Source: a virus
Lineage: Duplodnaviria; Heunggongvirae; Uroviricota; Caudoviricetes
Reading direction: 5' to 3' (one strand)
Length of the DNA: 43,501 bases
IMG/VR virus record: IMGVR_UViG_2547132420_000011
Both the position numbers and the translations under genes were made by a program. How positions within the stretch are numbered: position 1 is the first letter of the stretch; each line of letters starts with the position of its first letter. The notes beneath the pieces are model-generated. The model saw only the letters and a program-made list of their open reading frames with translations. It was not told the origin of the DNA and ran no database searches. Of the stretch, positions 1,963 to 20,852 are shown piece after piece.

Positions 1963-4434
1963 TTAAAAATCAGCCTGATTCGGAATCAGTTTTTGCCAGA
2001 TAGCTGAAACGTATTTTGCCTGGTAACGGGCGTCATCAAGTGCATTATGGCGCTCACCTTCGAATGGAATAGCCGTTCTGGCATCGAAGTCTATGGCTTT
2101 CCCCAGCTCAACGATTGTGCGTACATCGCGATCGTTGTAGTAACGCCACGGGCAGGGGATCCCCTGCCGTTCGTATGAACGGCGCAAAATCGTGTTGTCG
2201 AAGTTGGCTCCATTTCCCCAAACCTGAACAAAAAATTCACCGGAGTTTTCGTCGATAAATTCCCGCAATTGTAACAGTGCATCATCTAACGGGATTTCAT
2301 CGGTCATAATGGCAGATTGCGCTTCGCGTGATTGCTTAAGCCACCATTTAATGGTGTCCCGATCAATGACTCCGCCAGCAGTTTCCAGATCGATAGTCTT
2401 ACTAAATTCCGGTCCCATATCTCCGGTTTGCGGATCGAAAAATATTGCACCTATTGAGATAATCGGGGCATCAGGATTTTTTCCCATGGTTTCAAGGTCG
2501 ATCATTAGATGGTCACACGTCCTACTGGCGGATGTGATTTCGTGATGACTGTTCACCTTAATTGAGTGATCTGCCGTCTCGCCAGTTTCATTATCGCTAT
2601 TGTGATGCTGATTGCCGCCAGTGTTCTTCTTGTTTGGATGTTCAGCGCCTTCCATTTCCTCCGGATCATCTTCCTGAACTTCAACCTGATACTCTTCATC
2701 GAATGTTTCCTGGTATGTTGCGTCGCCCATCACCGCGCCACAATCAGGGCAGTTGCCGCCGCCGGTCTGACCGCAGGCGGTGCAGATCTTTTCCGGTTCC
2801 TGTTGCACTACTGGTTCAGGTTGTTTCGTTTCTGGCTCGTTTTGTAACGCATTTGGGCTGTTTTGTTCCGCTTTCTGGCCGTTCTGTTCCGTTTCTTGCT
2901 GGTTCTGGTTCACAGTATCGCGGGTCTGGATCCCCTTAACCCATTTCGGATCATTCGGGTCGCTAATCCCTTCAATAAATTCACCACGTGATGCAGCAAG
3001 CAACTTATCGGCGTCAGGCTGGCTGATATTGGCTGCCTGCATAATTTTGTTTACTTCGTCAGCGGTAACTTTTACCGGTTCTGGCTGTGCGGTCGTGTCA
3101 GATGCACCAGTATTTTGTTGTGAACCTGAGTATGTACTGTTTTTGCGGGCGAAATATTCTTCTTTCGTGATTTCAGTAGCCCCGGCAGCCAGCGCCTTAT
3201 CCAGACCAGAAAGTTTGTTTGCGCGACCGTATTTTTCGCCATCCTTGTCGGTGAAGAGGAAGTAGAACGGCCCCTCACGCTCTACAGATGGTTCGACTTC
3301 CACTTTGCATTCGGTTTTTTCGTTGTCCGGAATTGCCGTTTCCACTGCATCAGTTTCTGGTACTGGCGACGAGAGAGTATCAGTTGCGCTCTGATTTGTT
3401 CCTTCATCTTCAAACACGCCCTTTGTAGTCAGGTATTCAGTAATGTATTTGTTCAGTGCCACAGGATCTTTGTGAATGTCGATCGGACGTTCACGGACAA
3501 GGCCAAAAATAGTCTGGCGGTCGTAGCGAAGGGCATCAGGCTGTTTGCGCATCGATGCCGAGATACGCTTCCAGTCTTCGCGGTCGTTGTCGATAACTTC
3601 ATTTTTTGCCCAGCGATGGATGCTGCCGTCAATGTTTCCGGCATCCACATCACCAGGCCAGAGAGCGTAGGCCAGTTCGTCATCCAGTGTTTTCCATGTC
3701 TGCTTGTATTCGCGATGAGTGGCAGCAATGACCGGGTTGATTTTTCCTGTTGAATTTTCAGTGTTCTGTTGATTGGCTCTGGCGCGGGCGAGATCAACAA
3801 CAGACGTGTATTTTCCGGTTTCCTTGCGCTCACCTTCGCGACGTTTTTTCCAGATGCGCATCTCTGCCTGAATTTCGGGCCATTTGGCACCAGGCTTACA
3901 TTTATGCTTAACCCACCCGATGGCATGCAGCTTAAGCTCCGGATACATGGCGTTAACTTCTGGCATTTTCATCAACGCTTCAACGATATGTCCGTCGAAT
4001 GCTGCCATGTCTTCCTGCAACAATTCCTGCGCGCTAATCACCATATCAACGGTGATGTTTTCACATGTGTCGAACTTAACCATGACAGCGTTCTGTACTT
4101 CAGGGGCCAGCTTGTCAAAAGTGACGTTCATCGGATCTGATTCAGTCTCAACCGGGACAAAGGAAGCTGACTCCTCATCCCAGCGGTTTTCCTGCATATA
4201 TTCAGCATCCCAGGAATCGAGGGCAGGGCGGGGTATACCGGGTTTATCCTCGCAAACAAGAAATTTATAAGCGCAGTCCTGAGCAGCCGGATAATGCTCC
4301 AGGAATTGCCAGGTAAATTTGGCACGGGCGCGGCGTTCGTCGCCAGCTTCAATGGCAGTGGCTACAGCGACTGCACCTTCTTCCTTTATTGCCTGTTCGT
4401 CCGGAATAGCGGCGCAAATAAAGACTTTACTCAT
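1963..4434 (-). CDS. RecE-like large exonuclease with C-terminal DEDDh (DnaQ-like) 3'-5' exonuclease domain
   Basis: 823 aa; C-terminal motifs HLMIDLETMG (Exo I), VWGNGANFDNTIL (Exo II), HNALDDARYQAKY (Exo III); central segment DADKLLAASRGEF..SDPNDPKWVKGIQTRD recalled as RecE-like; Cys4 motif CTACGQTGGGNCPDCG; low-complexity Q/E/P-rich linker. Confidence 0.75.
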   Translation of the reverse strand: MSKVFICAAIPDEQAIKEEGAVAVATAIEAGDERRARAKFTWQFLEHYPAAQDCAYKFLVCEDKPGIPRPALDSWDAEYMQENRWDEESASFVPVETESDPMNVTFDKLAPEVQNAVMVKFDTCENITVDMVISAQELLQEDMAAFDGHIVEALMKMPEVNAMYPELKLHAIGWVKHKCKPGAKWPEIQAEMRIWKKRREGERKETGKYTSVVDLARARANQQNTENSTGKINPVIAATHREYKQTWKTLDDELAYALWPGDVDAGNIDGSIHRWAKNEVIDNDREDWKRISASMRKQPDALRYDRQTIFGLVRERPIDIHKDPVALNKYITEYLTTKGVFEDEGTNQSATDTLSSPVPETDAVETAIPDNEKTECKVEVEPSVEREGPFYFLFTDKDGEKYGRANKLSGLDKALAAGATEITKEEYFARKNSTYSGSQQNTGASDTTAQPEPVKVTADEVNKIMQAANISQPDADKLLAASRGEFIEGISDPNDPKWVKGIQTRDTVNQNQQETEQNGQKAEQNSPNALQNEPETKQPEPVVQQEPEKICTACGQTGGGNCPDCGAVMGDATYQETFDEEYQVEVQEDDPEEMEGAEHPNKKNTGGNQHHNSDNETGETADHSIKVNSHHEITSASRTCDHLMIDLETMGKNPDAPIISIGAIFFDPQTGDMGPEFSKTIDLETAGGVIDRDTIKWWLKQSREAQSAIMTDEIPLDDALLQLREFIDENSGEFFVQVWGNGANFDNTILRRSYERQGIPCPWRYYNDRDVRTIVELGKAIDFDARTAIPFEGERHNALDDARYQAKYVSAIWQKLIPNQADF

Positions 4435-4514
4435 GTTGTTTTAACCTCATTACAGATTTAAGGGTGAACAAATCCCTGCCATTGCTGGCATATAAAAATG
4501 AAACCGGATATTAA

Positions 4515-4718
4515 TTACGGTGCTGTTTTAAGTCCTGCCGGGATTTCGTTATTATCCATGTGAATAACTTTATCGACCGGATAACAGTTACCGGGAATTT
4601 TCTGTTCCGCTGCGGCAGCCATGCATTCTTTCATTGAACCGTAAATGTCAATAACCATGTCAACAGGCTCACCAGTATTAAGAAAAACAGTCAGAGTGAG
4701 GGCAATAGTAGTATTCAT
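4515..4718 (-). CDS. Small prophage early protein, unknown function
   Basis: ORF 4515..4772; internal ATG at 4718 (MNTTIAL...) preceded by AGGA; ATGA start/stop overlap with the upstream gene. Confidence 0.45.
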   Translation of the reverse strand: MNTTIALTLTVFLNTGEPVDMVIDIYGSMKECMAAAAEQKIPGNCYPVDKVIHMDNNEIPAGLKTAP

Positions 4719-4903
4719 TGCCAGTATCCTTTTTGCATCGGGCGTAAACGTGCCAGCATTGAAAGAATGCATATTTTATTTAATAGCTCCCGTTCGTATT
4801 TTCTCTTATTAATGGCATCTTCAGTAAATACAGGGTTACTGATTCTGACACCAATTTCAAAACAACCTTCAGACGTATTGACGTTTGGTAATAACGTTTC
4901 CAT
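4715..4903 (-). CDS. Small prophage early protein, unknown function (kil-like position)
   Basis: ORF 4715..4999; ATG at 4903 (METLLPN...) preceded by GAGGA; first gene of the leftward operon; 62 aa. Confidence 0.4.
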   Translation of the reverse strand: METLLPNVNTSEGCFEIGVRISNPVFTEDAINKRKYERELLNKICILSMLARLRPMQKGYWQ

Positions 4904-4920
4904 TATCGCGTCCTCAACAA

Positions 4921-5082
4921 TGAATTTTGTGATGCGGTGCCTGGTGCCTCCAGGTGACGTTAACCAGTTAATAATTAACGCCGGATACAGAGAACCCACC
5001 CATAAGAACCAATACGGAAGTCAACTGGTCTTTTTAACTGTTCCGCGTGCGCTGAGCCGCATTCACCGCATCACAAAATTCA
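4921..5082. repeat. 19-bp perfect inverted repeat (TGAATTTTGTGATGCGGTG, 4921-4939 and 5064-5082) flanking a 124-bp spacer
   Basis: Read directly from the sequence; the arms are exact reverse complements; lies in the divergent intergenic region upstream of the leftward early operon. Confidence 0.7.
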
Positions 5083-5470
5083 CTTTAAAAGGGGCGGGTA
5101 TCATGGGAAAAACAAAACGGATACCCGCCAAAAGGTAATCAACATGGGTTGTTGCAGCGGGGTTGTCACTCAGGCGTATGGTCAACCTGACAACCCGGTG
5201 GACATTTGCGAGGAACGGAGAACCCCCGCCATACTTACCGCCGCGCCATTTCGCGGAGTGCCACAACCGGAAGCGCACGGTCGACGAAAATTTAACGACA
5301 GGCTATCTATGAACCAACAACTTCGCCGTGCGCTTTCGCGTTATGCCCTGACTTTTCAGGGAGATATCCTTTCAGTAAACTGTCAGTGCCGGATGCTCAC
5401 CCGTGTCCGGCGCACGCACTCCACCTCACCCGTGGAGAACTCCTTAATTACTAACCCTCAGGAGGATGAA

Positions 5471-5746
5471 ATGGGGTTTGATGTCAATGAAACTCTTAAC
5501 TCTCTTATACGGAAAATTAATGATTTTGATAAAACACTACAGCATGCTGCGGCGCGTAGTGATATAACATTGTTAGCAATTTCATACCTTGCATCTGCCA
5601 TGAATAAAGATGAAACGGTACGAAAGAATCTCGTTGATTATATCGACTCGCTTCAGCCGGGCACTTTCAACCCTGAGAGCTTCAATCATGAGAAAGAGCA
5701 TGTTAAATCTGTAATTAATTCTCTTGTTTTGAATCAAAAGAATTGA
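5471..5746 (+). CDS. Hypothetical protein, 91 aa (sieB-equivalent position)
   Basis: ATG at 5471 directly preceded by GGAGG (5461-5465); the long upstream in-frame ORF (5144-5470) has Cys/Arg-rich non-protein-like composition; convergent with and overlapping the 3' end of the 5715..6056 gene by 32 nt. Confidence 0.45.
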   Translation: MGFDVNETLNSLIRKINDFDKTLQHAAARSDITLLAISYLASAMNKDETVRKNLVDYIDSLQPGTFNPESFNHEKEHVKSVINSLVLNQKN

Positions 5747-6056
5747 TGCTTCTTGTTACGAAGCAATTTTCAAGGGGTTCTATCCGAATCCCTTTCTTTT
5801 CCATTAACAAGCCAAACCCCTTATTAATGATGTCCATTAATTCCAGGAAGTATTTTTTATGTAAATCCTGGTTATCAGAGAGTTGCTTCTCTTCGTACAG
5901 ACCGATAAAGGCACGACGCACGTTACCGGATATATTATCGATGGTTTCTTTTTCTACGGTACTCAGGTCAAGAGTCGCCAATTGAGAATGAACTATATTC
6001 GCTGCCATTTCCTGGAATGGCATTGGTAAATCTTTAAATTCCATCGTCAACCTCAT
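5715..6056 (-). CDS. Hypothetical protein, 113 aa, translationally coupled to upstream DUF1391-like gene
   Basis: ATG at 6056 overlaps the TGA stop of the upstream gene (ATGA); alternative ATG at 6044 with GAGG; balanced amino-acid composition. Confidence 0.5.
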   Translation of the reverse strand: MRLTMEFKDLPMPFQEMAANIVHSQLATLDLSTVEKETIDNISGNVRRAFIGLYEEKQLSDNQDLHKKYFLELMDIINKGFGLLMEKKGIRIEPLENCFVTRSINSFDSKQEN

Positions 6057-6208
6057 CAGTCAGTATTTCTGGCTAACCAGCGACGCGCGCCAGCTTCGGT
6101 TTTAAACGTTTTGCTTTTGGTATACGTCATCGCCGTGAACGTGCCGTCTTGGTTTGGAAACACGCCGTATACCAGAGACTCGTTGTTGCCAAGATCGATA
6201 GTATCCAT
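6056..6208 (-). CDS. Small prophage protein, DUF1391-like (YdaF/YdfA-like, from memory)
   Basis: ORF 6056..6286; ATG at 6208 (MDTIDLGNNESLVYGVFPNQDGTFTAMTYTKSKTFK...) preceded by GAGG; 50 aa; downstream of the repressor on the same strand. Confidence 0.5.
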   Translation of the reverse strand: MDTIDLGNNESLVYGVFPNQDGTFTAMTYTKSKTFKTEAGARRWLARNTD

Positions 6209-6497
6209 GTTGACCTCATTTCCCCTTAACGCCGGGGTAGCGGAACAAAAACCTGCTGCATAGTTAAAGTTGAACCCTGCCGTCATGTTCTTACGCCTCG
6301 GGCTGGCTACTTAACCCCTGACCACTGCCTGGTAACTCGAAGTATTGCCCTGCATTCTGTAGGATGGGGTGAGGGAATGAATGAAGTTTAGAAAAACGAA
6401 CTTTTCAGGTCAATGTTTTTTTATCAAAACATTTTAAGCAGGCAGCTGTTAAGCCATCACCACGATGGCATACAGTTAATCAAATAGATGAGGTTGG

Positions 6498-9819: not shown

Positions 9820-11823
9820 ATGATTATGAGTGAAAATGATACAACCCCAAAGAAGTCTACAAGCCAGATTAACAAAGCGGTATTCTTTACATCTGCTTTG
9901 CTAATTTTCCTTCTTGTCGCCTTTGCCGCCGTATTCCCGGATGTCGCCGACAAAAATTTTAAACTACTTCAGCAACAAATCTTCACGAATGCCAGCTGGT
10001 TCTACATACTTGCTGTGGCCCTGATTTTACTGAGCGTCACGTTCCTTGGACTCTCACGTTACGGTGATATAAAGCTGGGCCCAGACCATGCGCAGCCTGA
10101 TTTCAGCTACCACTCCTGGTTCGCGATGCTTTTTTCGGCAGGGATGGGGATCGGCCTGATGTTCTTTGGCGTTGCCGAACCTGTGATGCATTATCTTTCG
10201 CCACCTGTCGGCACTCCAGAGACCGTTGCGGCAGCGAAGGAAGCCATGCGCCTGACGTTCTTCCACTGGGGTCTGCACGCATGGGCAATTTATGCCATCG
10301 TGGCGCTGATTCTGGCCTTTTTCAGTTACCGTCACGGTCTGCCTTTAACGCTGCGTTCTGCGCTCTATCCCATTATCGGCGATCGCATTTACGGGCCTAT
10401 AGGCCACGCGGTTGATATCTTCGCCGTGATAGGCACTGTCTTTGGCGTTGCAACATCGCTGGGTTACGGTGTATTGCAGGTGAATGCCGGTTTGAACCAT
10501 CTTTTCGGCGTGCCCATCAATGAAACGGTACAGGTCATTTTGATCGTGGTCATCACGGGGTTAGCGACGATTTCGGTGGTGTCCGGCCTGGACAAGGGAA
10601 TACGCATCCTGTCTGAGCTTAATCTGGGCCTGGCGGTGTTGCTCCTGGCGCTGGTCTTGTGCCTGGGTCCCACTGTGCTTCTGCTGAAGTCATTTGTGGA
10701 AAATACGGGTGGTTATCTGTCGGAACTGGTGAGTAAAACGTTCAACCTTTACGCGTATGAACCCAAGTCGAGCAACTGGCTGGGGGGCTGGACATTATTA
10801 TACTGGGGATGGTGGCTTTCATGGTCGCCGTTTGTAGGTATGTTCATTGCACGCGTTTCCCGCGGCAGGACAATTCGTGAGTTCGTGACTGGCGTGTTGT
10901 TTGTTCCCGCCGGCTTTACGCTCATGTGGATGACGGTGTTTGGAAACAGCGCCATCTATCTCATCATGAACCAGGGCGCCACTGACCTCGCCAATACCGT
11001 TCAGCAGGATGTTGCGCTTGCCCTGTTTAATTTCCTGGAGCATTTCCCGTTCTCTTCCGTGCTGTCATTCATTGCAATGGCGATGGTCATCGTCTTCTTT
11101 GTAACGTCTGCTGATTCGGGGGCAATGGTTGTGGATACTCTGGCATCAGGTGGGGTGGCAAACACGCCCGTCTGGCAGCGAATTTTCTGGGCATCGCTCA
11201 TGGGCGTTGTTGCTATTGCCCTGCTGATCGCAGGGGGGCTGAGTGCGTTGCAAACCGTAACGATAGCGAGTGCATTGCCCTTCTCAGTTATCTTATTAAT
11301 ATCCATATACGGACTGTTAAAAGCCCTGCGTCGGGATTTGACCAAGCGTGAAAGCCTTAGCATGGCGACTATTGCTCCTACGGCTGCACGTAACCCAATT
11401 CCCTGGCAGAGAAGGTTACGCAATATCGCGTATTTGCCGAAGCGCTCTCTTGTGAAACGTTTTATGGACGACATTATCCACCCCGCCATGACGCTGGTTC
11501 AGGAGGAACTTAACAAGCAGGGAACGATAAGCCACATCAGTGACGCCGCCGAGGATCGTATTCGCCTTGAAGTCGATTTGGGCAACGAGCTGAATTATAT
11601 ATATGAAGTGAGGCTTCGCGGGTATAACTCACCGACCTTCGCGCTCGCTGCGCTGGATAATGATGAGCAGCAGAGTGAACAACATCGATATTATCGCGCT
11701 GAAGTCTATCTCAAAGAGGGCGGCCAAAATTATGATGTAATGGGCTGGAATCAGGAACAGCTGATTAATGACATACTGGACCAGTACGAAAAACACCTGC
11801 ACTTCCTGCATCTGGTTCGTTAA
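9820..11823 (+). CDS. BCCT-family transporter, BetT-like (choline/betaine/carnitine)
   Basis: 667 aa, multiple TM helices; motifs GIGLMFFGVAEP and WTLLYWGWWLSWSPFVGMFIARVSRGRTIREF typical of BCCT transporters; hydrophilic C-terminal tail as in BetT; ATG at 9826 is an alternative start. Confidence 0.85.
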   Translation: MIMSENDTTPKKSTSQINKAVFFTSALLIFLLVAFAAVFPDVADKNFKLLQQQIFTNASWFYILAVALILLSVTFLGLSRYGDIKLGPDHAQPDFSYHSWFAMLFSAGMGIGLMFFGVAEPVMHYLSPPVGTPETVAAAKEAMRLTFFHWGLHAWAIYAIVALILAFFSYRHGLPLTLRSALYPIIGDRIYGPIGHAVDIFAVIGTVFGVATSLGYGVLQVNAGLNHLFGVPINETVQVILIVVITGLATISVVSGLDKGIRILSELNLGLAVLLLALVLCLGPTVLLLKSFVENTGGYLSELVSKTFNLYAYEPKSSNWLGGWTLLYWGWWLSWSPFVGMFIARVSRGRTIREFVTGVLFVPAGFTLMWMTVFGNSAIYLIMNQGATDLANTVQQDVALALFNFLEHFPFSSVLSFIAMAMVIVFFVTSADSGAMVVDTLASGGVANTPVWQRIFWASLMGVVAIALLIAGGLSALQTVTIASALPFSVILLISIYGLLKALRRDLTKRESLSMATIAPTAARNPIPWQRRLRNIAYLPKRSLVKRFMDDIIHPAMTLVQEELNKQGTISHISDAAEDRIRLEVDLGNELNYIYEVRLRGYNSPTFALAALDNDEQQSEQHRYYRAEVYLKEGGQNYDVMGWNQEQLINDILDQYEKHLHFLHLVR

Positions 11824-18551: not shown

Positions 18552-18841
18552 TGGTGAATTTACGTAAAGCGGCTAAAGGCCAGATGTGCCAGATCAGAAT
18601 CCCTGGCTACTGCAATCACAATCCCGAAACCTCTGTGCTGGCGCATTACAGGCTGGCGGGGACGTGCGGAACAGCGACAAAACCACACGATATGCAGGCG
18701 GCGATAGCCTGTAGCTCATGCCACGATCTAATCGACGGGCGGGTAAAAACCAGCGATTACACCAAAGAAGAATTGCGCCTGATGCATGCTGAAGGGGTTT
18801 TTCGCACACAAGAAATCTGGAGAAAGAAAGGTCATTTATGA
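18551..18841 (+). CDS. ybcO: YbcO-like protein (DUF1364, putative nuclease with Cys/His metal site)
   Basis: 96 aa; motifs CQIRIPGYCNHNPETSVLAH and ACSSCHD resemble DLP12 YbcO (from memory); translationally coupled to flanking genes. Confidence 0.7.
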   Translation: MVNLRKAAKGQMCQIRIPGYCNHNPETSVLAHYRLAGTCGTATKPHDMQAAIACSSCHDLIDGRVKTSDYTKEELRLMHAEGVFRTQEIWRKKGHL

Positions 18842-19380
18842 TTTACCCAACGAATACAGGAAAAAGCGGAGAACACCTTCGCCTCACCACGCTGGAAAGT
18901 GTCTGGATTCAGGGAAAACTACGTATGTGGGGGCGCTGGTCGTATATTGGCGGTGGCAGGTCAGGGAATATGTTCAATCAGTTGTTGGCATCCAAAAAAC
19001 TGACGAAAACAGCCATTAATGAAGCCCTGCGTAGAATGAAAAAAGCGGGAATAGAGAAAGCTGAGCTGGAAGCGTTTTTGCGAGAGATGATCAACGGCAA
19101 GCAAAAGAGCTGGCTGGCGCATTGTACTGATGCAGAGGCGTTATGTATTGATCGAGTCATAAGTGAGGTGCTGGCAGAGCATCCAGGATTGATTTGCATT
19201 CTCCGGCAACGCTATGAAGGGCGGGGGATGACTAAGCGCAAAATGGCTGAATTGCTAAATGATGGACACCCAGAGTGGTGTTTTAGCACATGCGAAAAAC
19301 GGATTGCTAATTGGTTAGCTGTTGCTGAGTATGCCCTATATATTCCCATGCGTGAATCATTTGCTGAGAAAATGGCTTGA
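18838..19380 (+). CDS. Putative late-gene antiterminator (Q-like), called by position
   Basis: 180 aa; last nin-region gene, followed 80 nt downstream by a strong intrinsic terminator and then the late/lysis genes. Confidence 0.55.
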   Translation: MIYPTNTGKSGEHLRLTTLESVWIQGKLRMWGRWSYIGGGRSGNMFNQLLASKKLTKTAINEALRRMKKAGIEKAELEAFLREMINGKQKSWLAHCTDAEALCIDRVISEVLAEHPGLICILRQRYEGRGMTKRKMAELLNDGHPEWCFSTCEKRIANWLAVAEYALYIPMRESFAEKMA

Positions 19381-19460
19381 TTTCTTACGTATAAACTGCT
19401 TCAATTTTGCTATGCTTCGCACAGCTGTATCGCGAGGCGGATTGCAGACATGGACATCGT

Positions 19461-19487
19461 AAAAAAACCGCTTAATGCGGTTTTTTT
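19461..19487 (+). terminator. tR'-like intrinsic terminator downstream of Q-like gene
   Basis: A7 (19461-19467), short GC stem CCGC/GCGG around loop, then T7 (19481-19487); symmetric A-run/T-run suggests bidirectional function. Confidence 0.55.
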
Positions 19488-19807
19488 ACGTCAGGAAAGC
19501 AGGGGAGAATGCTGCTAGTTGGGCAACTGGTCTTTCTGCTCCAAATTATAACAGAGACCAGTTATAGTTTCGGTGCTGTGTTTTTTTTACAATATTGTGA
19601 TAACACATTGCTGGCGGGAGTTTTGATATTTCTTGGCAGGGGCTGATGATGCGTTATCCTGATGTCGTCAACTCATATAAAATGAGATGAGAGATCATTG
19701 CAGGGTGGTTTGTAATTCGCTGTTTAGCGGGACAATATGTTGTCTGATACAAGACACCCGACGCCTCAGATTACTATAATAAAGACGAAGCATCCTTTGT
19801 ATTGACC

Positions 19808-19833: not shown

Positions 19834-20423
19834 GGACTGGTTTATTGTATGCCAAATGATTATTAAAAAGGTTGTGTTAATAACAAAATCCGAAATAATA
19901 TGCCTGCATATTTTTATCTTGCTTATATTCTGCATATTGTGCATAGCAGGCTCATCCCTGCAATCAAAACTGTATGATGAGTATTTTTTTTTTCCTTTTT
20001 TCCAGTCATCTGATGATGACCTGCTTCTTTTTAATCCGGATCGACATCAGTTTTTTAAGATAATTCCTGCGAGTTATATGCATAAATACCACAAACTCCG
20101 CATTTTATGTGGTTGGGAGTTGCCGGGCGCGCAGTGAGTTTGCTAAGAAAACTCCTGCATGGTGAATCCCCCTGTGCGGTGGGGTGATACCATTAACCTT
20201 TTCTGTCGCCGACAGGTATCACGAACATTTTGTTCACCGGGAGGCACCCGGCACCATGCACTTCAATAGATTCTCTCCACATTATGGATATTCTTTCAGA
20301 ATATCCCACGCAGACTTTGTGTAAATGTTAACAAATGTGCGTTTTATTTGATCTGATTCGCTGTTTGAGCGTCCAAAACAACGGTATATATAATCCTTTA
20401 CTATATGACATATGTGAGGAAAA

Positions 20424-20852
20424 ATGGGTTTTCGTAGCGCATCAATTCTTACGTTGATTATTAGTGGGATTATTATCGGGTGCACTGATGCTGTATCGAC
20501 AAATTATCATGACCGTACATCATATTACTCCGATAAAGCAATAGAGACACAGTATGTGAGTTCATCTGAACGTACTTCTGATGTTAGTGAGGATATCCGT
20601 CTGTATGCCCATCAAATCAAGAGCGCCATCGAAAAACAGTTCGGGGATGCGAGTAAGTATTCAGGAAAAGAGTGTACACTGAGAATGCATATGGCCCCGA
20701 ATGGCCTTCTACTGGAGGTTAAAAGAGAAAGTGGAGACCTCGATTTATGTCGTGAAGCGATGAATGCGATAAAGAATGCTGATATACCTGCCCCCCCTTC
20801 GCCGGAAGTATATAAAGTATTTCAAAATGGGGTGCTGGATTTTAAACCCTGA
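20424..20852 (+). CDS. Lipoprotein with TolA C-terminal (domain III)-like domain, moron
   Basis: 142 aa; signal peptide and lipobox IIGC; C-terminal segment IRLYAHQIKSAIEKQFGDASKYSGKECTLRMHMAPNGLLLEVKRESGDLDLCREAMNAIKNADIPAPPSPEVYKVFQNGVLDFKP resembles E. coli TolA C-terminus from memory; GAGG upstream. Confidence 0.7.
   Translation: MGFRSASILTLIISGIIIGCTDAVSTNYHDRTSYYSDKAIETQYVSSSERTSDVSEDIRLYAHQIKSAIEKQFGDASKYSGKECTLRMHMAPNGLLLEVKRESGDLDLCREAMNAIKNADIPAPPSPEVYKVFQNGVLDFKP

Follow-up and report, generated by a model that had tools for sequence, protein, structure and literature searches.

In the cryptic prophage Qin of Escherichia coli K-12, the cell-division inhibitor gene dicB belongs to an operon whose transcript starts at dicBp upstream of ydfA and in which an internal promoter has not been found (Ragunathan et al. 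2023). Within this operon RNase III makes the 5' end of a 190-nt precursor of DicF, a small RNA (sRNA), and RNase E generates the 53-nt form; at the dicB locus, published RNase III mapping covers no site other than that 5' of DicF (Ragunathan et al. 2023). In the Rac prophage, kilR follows the sRNA gene kilS; termination that depends on Rho/NusG restricts the expression of kilR, and read-through induces it (Barshishat et al. 2018). Here we examine a related locus in a 43,501-nt stretch of DNA from a virus of the Caudoviricetes (IMG/VR record IMGVR_UViG_2547132420_000011; hereafter the window), where a 19-bp inverted repeat lies directly upstream of a dicB gene, between positions 4904 and 5470.

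The second group of described RNAs that bears on this locus comes from the late region of prophages. In the literature, STnc100-type RNA is an Hfq-bound prophage sRNA (EcOnc27/sRNA103 of enterohaemorrhagic E. coli, downstream of stx2B), and recent work has linked STnc100 structurally to PasD1 and PasD2 of enteropathogenic E. coli. Both STnc100/EcOnc27 and PasD are reported to be Hfq-bound sRNAs visible on northern blots. PasD and STnc100 are reportedly located near Q, lysis genes or stx, and every Pas sRNA is reported to end in a terminator (Zhu et al.).

The inverted repeat of the window is the closing helix, P1, of a conserved and covarying RNA domain of about 165 nt, which forms on the dicB-sense strand and is homologous to STnc100/PasD. 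The domain, which we call the unit, is transcribed leftward (minus strand) within the early-left (dicB) operon, of a lambdoid prophage, between a terminator in the position of that of DicF and the ribosome-binding site (RBS) of dicB.

The inverted repeat closes a five-helix RNA domain

The repeat consists of TGAATTTTGTGATGCGGTG at 4921-4939 and its exact reverse complement at 5064-5082, two arms that are 100% complementary with 124 nt between them. The initial annotation, made from the sequence of the window, had judged a repeat of this length unlikely to arise by chance, and shuffling bears this out, the longest inverted repeats in 100 block-shuffles of the window being 10-13 bp. It is also the longest perfect inverted repeat with arms within 300 nt in the whole window, followed by one of 14 bp. 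When both strands are folded as RNA, the minus strand reaches −70.3 kcal/mol (z −6.8) versus −56.9 kcal/mol for the plus strand. In the minus-strand fold, P1 continues beyond the 19 Watson-Crick pairs of its core by one A-U and one G-U pair and encloses P2, a central helix with a variable insert, P3 and P4 (Table 1), arranged around a tight junction with just four unpaired nucleotides. Two motifs are near-invariant, G-AAU following P1 and UCACCnGGAGGCACnnGGC at P4, and the three CACC repeats that the domain carries in its 3' half lie sequestered within P4 and P1.

Homologs of the unit were gathered by scanning IMG/VR with a 5' motif and GTDB genomes with a 3' motif, and the pairing was tested on 64 non-identical units aligned with MAFFT and folded with RNAalifold. 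In this alignment 98.2% of the cells form standard pairs, versus 27-44% when the pairing partners are slid by 1-3 columns. Compensatory change occurs at 9 pairs (88 cells), a level reached in none of 500 shuffles, and is likewise seen in the outer extension of P1. The pairing also identifies the strand. One P3 pair, between columns 113 and 137, is G-U in 46 of the 64 sequences, and pairs of P1 are G-U or U-G in 8-16 of them; because these wobbles on the dicB strand would be A-C mismatches on the plus strand, the RNA must lie on the minus strand. A covariance model made from the same alignment gives the unit of the window 168 bits on the minus strand versus 30 bits on the plus one. When column pairs of the family alignment were scanned for tertiary or pseudoknot pairing, none emerged beyond the five helices.

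Two further readings of the unit were tried and rejected. Open reading frames (ORFs) overlap the domain at 4767-5138 (plus strand) and 5063-5278 (minus strand), but homologs differ in length by non-multiples of three and keep the pairing, not the frame, which argues against coding. The sequence GGCAC, present twice, could recall a sigma-54 site; judged by eye only, its spacing to the GC element is wrong and the 3' part is variable.

Table 1. Coordinates of the features discussed in the text (positions in the window; minus-strand helices are given in the direction of the RNA)
Feature	Position	Strand	Basis or description
Five-helix domain, A-type, STnc100-like	4919-5084	-	RNAfold, RNAalifold; covariance model, 168.4 bits
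P1	5084-5064 / 4939-4919	-	21 contiguous pairs; perfect 19-bp core 5082-5064 / 4939-4921
P2	5060-5045	-	
Central helix with variable insert	5044-4983	-	
P3	4982-4956	-	
P4, loop AGGCA	4954-4940	-	
DicF-position sRNA slot	5086-5134	-	Short 5' segment, 10-bp terminator hairpin 5129-5120 / 5102-5093, CC, U-tract 5090-5087
Conserved untranslated leader	5140-5455	-	Homolog of K-12 Qin ydfC-dicF spacer; side-by-side reading, megablast to dicB-operon phages
dicB Shine-Dalgarno sequence GAGGA	4911-4915	-	3-5 nt downstream of the P1 3' arm
dicB	4715-4903	-	62-aa cell-division inhibitor; Pfam DicB PF05358, 127.9 bits, full length
ORF, 91 aa	5471-5746	+	Strong AGGAGG RBS; terminator-like site 5772-5794 (+)
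cI/LexA-type repressor, 212 aa	6498-7136	-	Right of the region
Canonical STnc100 copy	20127-20313	+	Rfam STnc100, 86.6 bits (gathering score 47)
Same copy, fold shared with the unit	20141-20275	+	Model of A-type units, 49.1 bits, E 5.6e-15, aligned end to end

The unit is an operon-embedded relative of STnc100 and PasD

Of all Rfam families, STnc100 (RF02076) alone matches the unit at E<=10, over positions 21-154 of the 206 in its model (34.1 bits, E 2.9e-5). This score does not reach the Rfam gathering score of 47 bits, and the same holds for the copy in K-12 Qin (34.4 bits) and that in phage P7 (43 bits). In the Rfam alignment the inverted repeat falls on the outer helix of the STnc100 model. 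The homology is reciprocal, since a model built solely from dicB/kilR-type units finds a canonical STnc100 copy that the window carries on its other strand (Table 1), in an AT-rich moron zone between a Q-like antiterminator gene (18838-19380) and an ORF resembling the C-terminal part of TolA (20424-20852). The unit and this canonical copy have the motifs GGUGAAU on the 5' side and UCACCnGGAGGCACnnGGCnCC on the 3' side in common, and the 3' motif occurs in the window at exactly these 2 places, versus 0.01 expected by chance. Beyond the window, the A-type model recovers 135 copies, from loci in Kosakonia, Enterobacter, Salmonella, Klebsiella, Citrobacter, Pantoea, Erwinia, Rahnella and other genera. 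In their alignment, which was fitted to the model and so leans towards the structure, 97.3% of the cells form pairs, and compensatory change is present at 23 of the 28 pairs.

STnc100/PasD and the unit thus have the same helix plan of P1, P2, central helix, P3 and P4, and both are restricted to prophages of Enterobacterales. They differ in the sequences of P2 and P3 and in the length of P1, which is at least 21 bp in the unit versus 6-14 bp in the STnc100 type. The unit, unlike STnc100/PasD, has no terminator of its own, there being no terminator-like site in 4904-4921, and it sits in the early-left operon directly upstream of an ORF, whereas STnc100/PasD occupy the Q / PR' late moron site. 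The unit is therefore a divergent, operon-embedded subclass of the STnc100 / PasD / EcOnc27 fold. While the fold family is already known, the dicB/kilR-leader subclass, present even in K-12, appears to be undescribed; our literature search found no paper on the copy between dicF and dicB or on that upstream of kilR, and searches with the motif strings returned unrelated papers only.

The second-longest perfect inverted repeat of the window (14 bp, 19458-19490) lies in the late region as well, just downstream of the Q-like gene, and may be part of a late terminator or of the qut region.

The unit lies in the untranslated middle of a dicB operon

On the minus strand, positions 5455-4904 align base for base with K-12 Qin from the stop codon of ydfC to the start of dicB, and on this sequence comparison 4904-5470 is the homolog of the Qin ydfC-dicF-dicB untranslated region. 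Megablast against phage genomes agrees, the matching records being annotated with dicB, DicF antisense sRNA and ydfD. The initial annotation had called the region a divergent intergenic region, which is correct insofar as dicB (minus strand, ATG at 4903) and the plus-strand ORF at 5471 point apart. By homology, however, the region is an internal, untranslated part of a leftward operon, as the base-for-base alignment with Qin implies. This untranslated stretch is about 570 nt long in Qin and longer in the window. Beyond dicB the operon continues with a YdfD-like DUF1482 protein and then a RecE-like exonuclease, so that the unit is placed in the early-left operon between the side of the cI-like repressor and recE. 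A promoter resembling PL is predicted near 6385-6413, and a consensus scan of the minus strand over 4904-5140 gave no promoter for dicB inside the unit. To the right of the region lie, besides the repressor gene, a DUF1391 (YdfA/YdaF-like) gene and plus-strand cro- and YdaT-like genes. A tRNA scan of the window found no tRNA.

The leader upstream of the unit holds hairpins of its own. The perfect 9-bp inverted repeat at 5160-5168 / 5188-5196 confirms the GGTTG/CAACC stretch from which the initial annotation had drawn alternative stems, and an additional inverted repeat of 13 nt (92%) at 5268-5280 / 5326-5338, absent from that annotation, forms together with its extensions a long imperfect hairpin around 5268-5338 that is conserved in K-12. 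The published RNase III cut behind the 190-nt DicF precursor likely falls in this hairpin: in K-12, the point 190 nt upstream of the annotated dicF 3' end lies in the arm that corresponds to about position 5274 of the window, give or take a few nucleotides.

Between this leader and the unit lies a short slot, taken by dicF in Qin and by kilS in Rac, that contains the perfect 10-bp hairpin (5093-5102 / 5120-5129) already noticed in the initial annotation. The end of the slot is constant across the collected prophages, GGCGG...CCGCC(C)-UUUU(U)AAAG followed directly by the 5' arm of the inverted repeat, and all versions share the GGCGG...CCGCC terminator and the junction UUUUAAAG. The 5' part is hypervariable and comes in a DicF type, a KilS type, the type of the window, the type of phage POCJ13, and others. 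The Rfam DicF model (RF00039) gives K-12 dicF 76.7 bits and KilS of Rac a sub-threshold 39.1 bits, which suggests that KilS is a DicF homolog; across 4400-6200 of the window it gives no match even at E<=10. Since the DicF model misses the version of the window, the slot may, on its sequence, encode a previously undescribed DicF-position sRNA with a different seed. This candidate has the slot, the GGCGG...CCGCC terminator and the UUUU(U)AAAG junction in common with DicF and KilS, while its 5' (seed) part is unrelated to that of DicF, including the part of the DicF model that pairs with ftsZ. It is a neighbour of the inverted repeat and not the repeat itself.

The plus-strand ORF at 5471-5746 has the position and orientation of sieB in Rac. 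Its 91-aa product has no Pfam or PHROG match, and tblastn found no match to it in 50,697 phage records. In a RefSeq prophage that carries the unit unchanged, the same ORF is annotated as 145 aa with a start at about window position 5309; this annotation overlaps the conserved minus-strand leader and is probably over-extended.

Distribution and genomic neighbours of the unit

The search for the unit as a dispersed element, suggested in the initial annotation, shows that it is very widespread and by no means found only here, with copies in most E. coli genomes. A 176-nt query matches at 10,437 places, spread over 4,642 of the 5,426 complete E. coli genomes, with a median of 2 and a maximum of 9 copies per genome and 144 places on plasmids. 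Nothing is annotated under the match in 39 of 40 sampled rows. In the RefSeq prophage mentioned above, the unit is 100% identical over window 4915-5090 and blank in the annotation, and the gene downstream is annotated dicB. Both cryptic prophages of K-12 carry the unit as well, in the dicF-dicB spacer of Qin and in the kilS-kilR spacer of Rac. These two spacers are orthologous copies, about 86-88% identical, and have the layout of the window, in which an sRNA terminator, the unit and the RBS of a division inhibitor follow one another; the window differs from both in having an sRNA slot with a 5' sequence unlike DicF or KilS. The spacers in Qin and Rac carry no annotation and are not discussed in the papers on dicBF or KilS that we consulted.

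In phages, copies precede dicB, kil (Shigella phage POCJ13, which has an N gene as well) or terB/tciA (P7 and D6), and in the P1-like phages P7 and D6 the unit lies downstream of tRNA genes. The tRNA just upstream of the unit in P7 (L004, 2726-2813, minus strand) and D6 (L005) is tRNA-Ser(tga) according to ARAGORN and scores 46.6 bits on Rfam tRNA-Sec, just below the threshold of 47. In a census of 115 IMG/VR copies, the downstream gene encodes DicB (about 55), KilR/Kil (about 20), TerB (3) or small membrane proteins, and in a further class the unit is followed by a KilS-like hairpin and terminator with no ORF. In this inverted-order class (L010, L008, L043 and similar loci), P1 is short (9 bp), P3 is different, and the KilS-like sequence and terminator follow within about 10 nt, so that unit and KilS-like sequence together look like one sRNA gene of about 200 nt.

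Among 140 copies in the genome set, the next element is an intrinsic terminator in 49, an ORF in 21, another copy in 9 and a tRNA in 3. Two copies in Citrobacter braakii (L203, 3725-5476, plus strand) lie immediately upstream of a tRNA-Met (4749) and a tRNA-like sequence (about 4192), and a Pantoea prophage (L204, 4121-5942, minus strand) has three back-to-back copies with differing, mutually compensating P1 sequences. Further clusters or tandem arrays occur in L189 and in L154, L167 and L177 (Pantoea plasmid pAPP145_2). The partners found, namely DicB, KilR/Kil, TerB/TciA, membrane proteins, tRNAs, terminators and other copies of the unit, do not belong to one pathway, as the gene partners of a riboswitch would. 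A copy of about 87% identity at the very end of the 254-kb jumbo-phage record of Aeromonas phage AP1 (MT713136.1, 249963-250152) is odd for the host range and may be an assembly chimera or contamination.

A possible gate on read-through transcripts

The length of P1 in A-type units is bimodal, 8-15 bp or 21-30 bp (one bulge allowed). The long form is found in copies sandwiched between an sRNA terminator and dicB/kilR, and the short form in P7 and D6, in Klebsiella and in copies in which the unit precedes an sRNA. Because P1 is long only in the operon-embedded dicB/kilR class, we propose that the domain acts there in cis, as a processing and translation gate. DicB and KilR are toxic, and the domain would form only on those transcripts that read through the sRNA terminator. 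On these, the 21-bp P1 could be extended further by pairing between the U-tract region of the terminator and the Shine-Dalgarno region of dicB, and the long P1 would keep the start region of the toxic dicB message poorly translatable while offering a double-stranded, RNase III-type processing site. Cleavage in P1 would part the sRNA upstream from the folded domain and the domain from the dicB mRNA, with the dicB start region either freed or destabilised. The core, P2-P4, would presumably be a binding or tertiary module common to the free-standing STnc100-type sRNAs.

Several observations are in keeping with such a gate. In the read-through RNA of both the window and Qin, the Shine-Dalgarno sequence of dicB has a predicted pairing partner in the CCUU/CUUU tail with which the terminator upstream ends; in partition-function folding, its mean probability of being unpaired is 0.21 in the full RNA versus 0.76 without the 5' partner in the window, and 0.26 versus 0.80 in K-12 Qin. 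P1 ends 3-5 nt before the Shine-Dalgarno sequence in Qin as in the window. Its 21 contiguous pairs amount to the helix of about two turns (about 20 bp or more) expected of an RNase III site, and RNase III already acts on the leader of the K-12 operon (Ragunathan et al. 2023).

Helices of this kind are well established as RNase III substrates in the lambda N leader, the T7 intercistronic sites and the stems of rRNA precursors, where, as in P1, the two strands of a long helix come from either side of a structured or coding segment. Like the lambda N and T7 helices, P1 stands just upstream of an RBS in a phage early transcript. Unlike all of these, P1 closes a conserved multi-helix domain instead of a simple irregular hairpin, its cleavage is a prediction, and the short-P1 members of the family would be unable to use this route.

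A number of points weigh against a gate. In the papers that we consulted, no experiment places an RNA end or an RNase III cut inside the dicF-dicB or kilS-kilR spacer, and the main texts of the papers with RNase III cleavage maps do not mention the locus. Sequestration of the Shine-Dalgarno sequence is predicted for the dicB class only, that of kilR in Rac being open, with a probability of being unpaired of 0.77. RNase III cannot use the short-P1 members as substrates, which are those of P7 and D6 upstream of terB, those of Klebsiella and those of the STnc100 type, and the conserved core therefore needs another role. A simple hairpin would suffice for gating, and the conserved core (the P2 loop, the P4 loop AGGCA and the tight junction) must serve a purpose for which neither a hairpin nor a seed sequence accounts. 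Finally, the tRNA- and sRNA-like neighbours and the tandem arrays fit a self-contained functional RNA better than a dedicated leader. Taking both sides together, we lean slightly towards the domain having a role in cis as a gate on read-through transcripts, and put forward the specific mechanism modelled here, access to the Shine-Dalgarno sequence coupled to an RNase III-type helix, as a tentative scheme that is perhaps correct but has the balance of probability against it.

Alternative explanations

The initial annotation had offered three explanations for the repeat: paired operators, a transposable element, and a leader or antisense RNA for the gene at 5471. All three are effectively excluded. 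Two identical 19-bp sites in inverted orientation, 124 bp apart and between divergently oriented ORFs, could well be DNA operators through which the leftward early promoter is controlled by looping. Yet identical arms are found beside RacR, DicA, the CI of Tritos and the 212-aa repressor of the window, and to the last of these RacR has no similarity, DicA 35% identity over the helix-turn-helix only and Tritos CI 31% over 32 residues. The arms of other members differ from those of the window and still remain complementary, changing in a compensatory manner and including G-U pairs that are mismatched in the DNA of the other strand. The region in K-12 is moreover internal to the transcript, about 1 kb from dicBp, and the PL-like promoter of the window is predicted near 6385-6413. 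The repressor comparisons and the covariation together rule out an operator pair, leaving it only a token probability.

A miniature inverted-repeat transposable element (MITE) of 162 bp with 19-bp terminal repeats would account for perfect terminal repeats around a segment with no coding capacity and for thousands of copies, up to 9 per E. coli genome and some on plasmids. No target-site duplication flanks the arms, however: the flanks, ...UUUUAAAG and UUGUUGAGGA on the RNA strand, read AAAG versus TTGT and contain no direct repeat. Conservation is lowest in the supposed termini, which range from 6 to 30 bp and covary, while the interior is conserved. Copies keep a syntenic place in prophage operons, downstream of the sRNA slot or of tRNAs and upstream of dicB, kilR/kil or terB, in the loci whose context was examined, which are the phage and IMG/VR loci, Qin and Rac of K-12 and one RefSeq prophage, and not the bulk of the E. 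coli matches; in the same loci, neither an empty site with a duplicated target nor a copy in an unrelated chromosomal gene was seen. The copy number also matches the count of lambdoid prophages and P1-like plasmids per genome. A mobile element of this kind is accordingly rejected as highly improbable. As to a structured leader of the 5471 gene, or an antisense RNA against it, a plus-strand transcript must start upstream of 5471, because the ORF has an AGGAGG RBS and a terminator-like site of its own. The suggestion of a structured leader RNA was right in kind, but the leader belongs to dicB on the minus strand and not to the plus-strand gene: the block 5140-5455 and the domain exist without the 5471 ORF in Qin, Rac and many phages, the strand-specific G-U pairs and the model scores put the RNA on the minus strand, and the domain lies at least 390 nt from the start of 5471. 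We give a role for 5471 next to no credence.

Three readings at the level of RNA compete with the gate. The domain itself could be the product, a stable trans-acting or protein-binding RNA excised by way of the long P1, with its position upstream of dicB incidental. The reciprocal homology with STnc100 favours this, STnc100/EcOnc27 and PasD being reported as Hfq-bound sRNAs detected on northern blots, as do the terminator that follows 49 of the 140 family copies, the layout of a stand-alone sRNA gene, the A-type copies followed by a KilS-like hairpin and terminator instead of an ORF, and the tandem arrays and neighbouring tRNA genes. A long P1 restricted to embedded copies is also what excision from a precursor would need, as in rRNA precursors. 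In the window, by contrast, the domain is followed by no terminator or defined 3' end, with the RBS of dicB within 5 nt; among published RNA species none maps to the copies in K-12, and the defined KilS ends upstream of the domain; and the copies in P7 and D6 are embedded in an operon yet have a short P1. We regard a stable RNA product as the main rival to the gate, possible but unlikely.

Alternatively, the domain could modulate termination, by hiding its C-rich CACC repeats from Rho or by acting on RNA polymerase, and in this way set the read-through to the toxic gene. The repeats are indeed sequestered in the fold, and they lie in a long untranslated stretch of the operon. Silencing of kilR by Rho/NusG was reportedly also described by Cardinale et al. 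in 2008. The put elements of HK022, two-hairpin structures of about 70 nt, are not known to bear any likeness to the domain, which counts against an action of this kind. An argument in favour is that kilR also has the domain in its leader, given that Rho/NusG keep this gene silent and read-through brings about its expression (Barshishat et al. 2018). The domain, however, cannot suppress the intrinsic terminator of the sRNA because it is downstream of it, and these data do not indicate where Rho acts; we consider modulation of termination improbable. About equally improbable, in our estimation, is that the five-helix domain, in both of its types, represents an unrecognised autonomous class of RNA of temperate enterobacterial phages, self-processing (ribozyme-like) or factor-recruiting, that would cut or insulate polycistronic phage transcripts. 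Neither a conventional base-pairing sRNA nor a simple leader, it would act where stable RNAs (sRNAs, tRNAs) border on accessory or toxic genes. The features that recommend such a class are the four-nucleotide junction, the invariant loops, the freely covarying P1, the lack of a consistent gene partner, the multiple copies per genome and the back-to-back tandem arrays.

Implications for prophage RNAs

The unit widens the STnc100/PasD/EcOnc27 group from an sRNA of the late region to a modular fold that also occurs in early operons, on P1-type plasmids, in tRNA clusters and in tandem arrays, and the Rfam STnc100 model at its curated threshold misses the whole dicB/kilR subclass. For specialists in prophage RNAs, it may come as a surprise that a conserved structure, whose function is so far inferred, has gone unremarked upstream of two toxins that are well studied. 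The domain is present in about 85% of complete E. coli genomes, and in K-12 it stands directly upstream of both dicB and kilR, whose toxins are of importance to phage exclusion, to the arrest of division under stress (OxyS-NusG-KilR) and possibly to predicting the virulence of Shiga toxin-producing E. coli. If the proposed gate is real, this leader element would add a layer of control to the expression of dicB and kilR.

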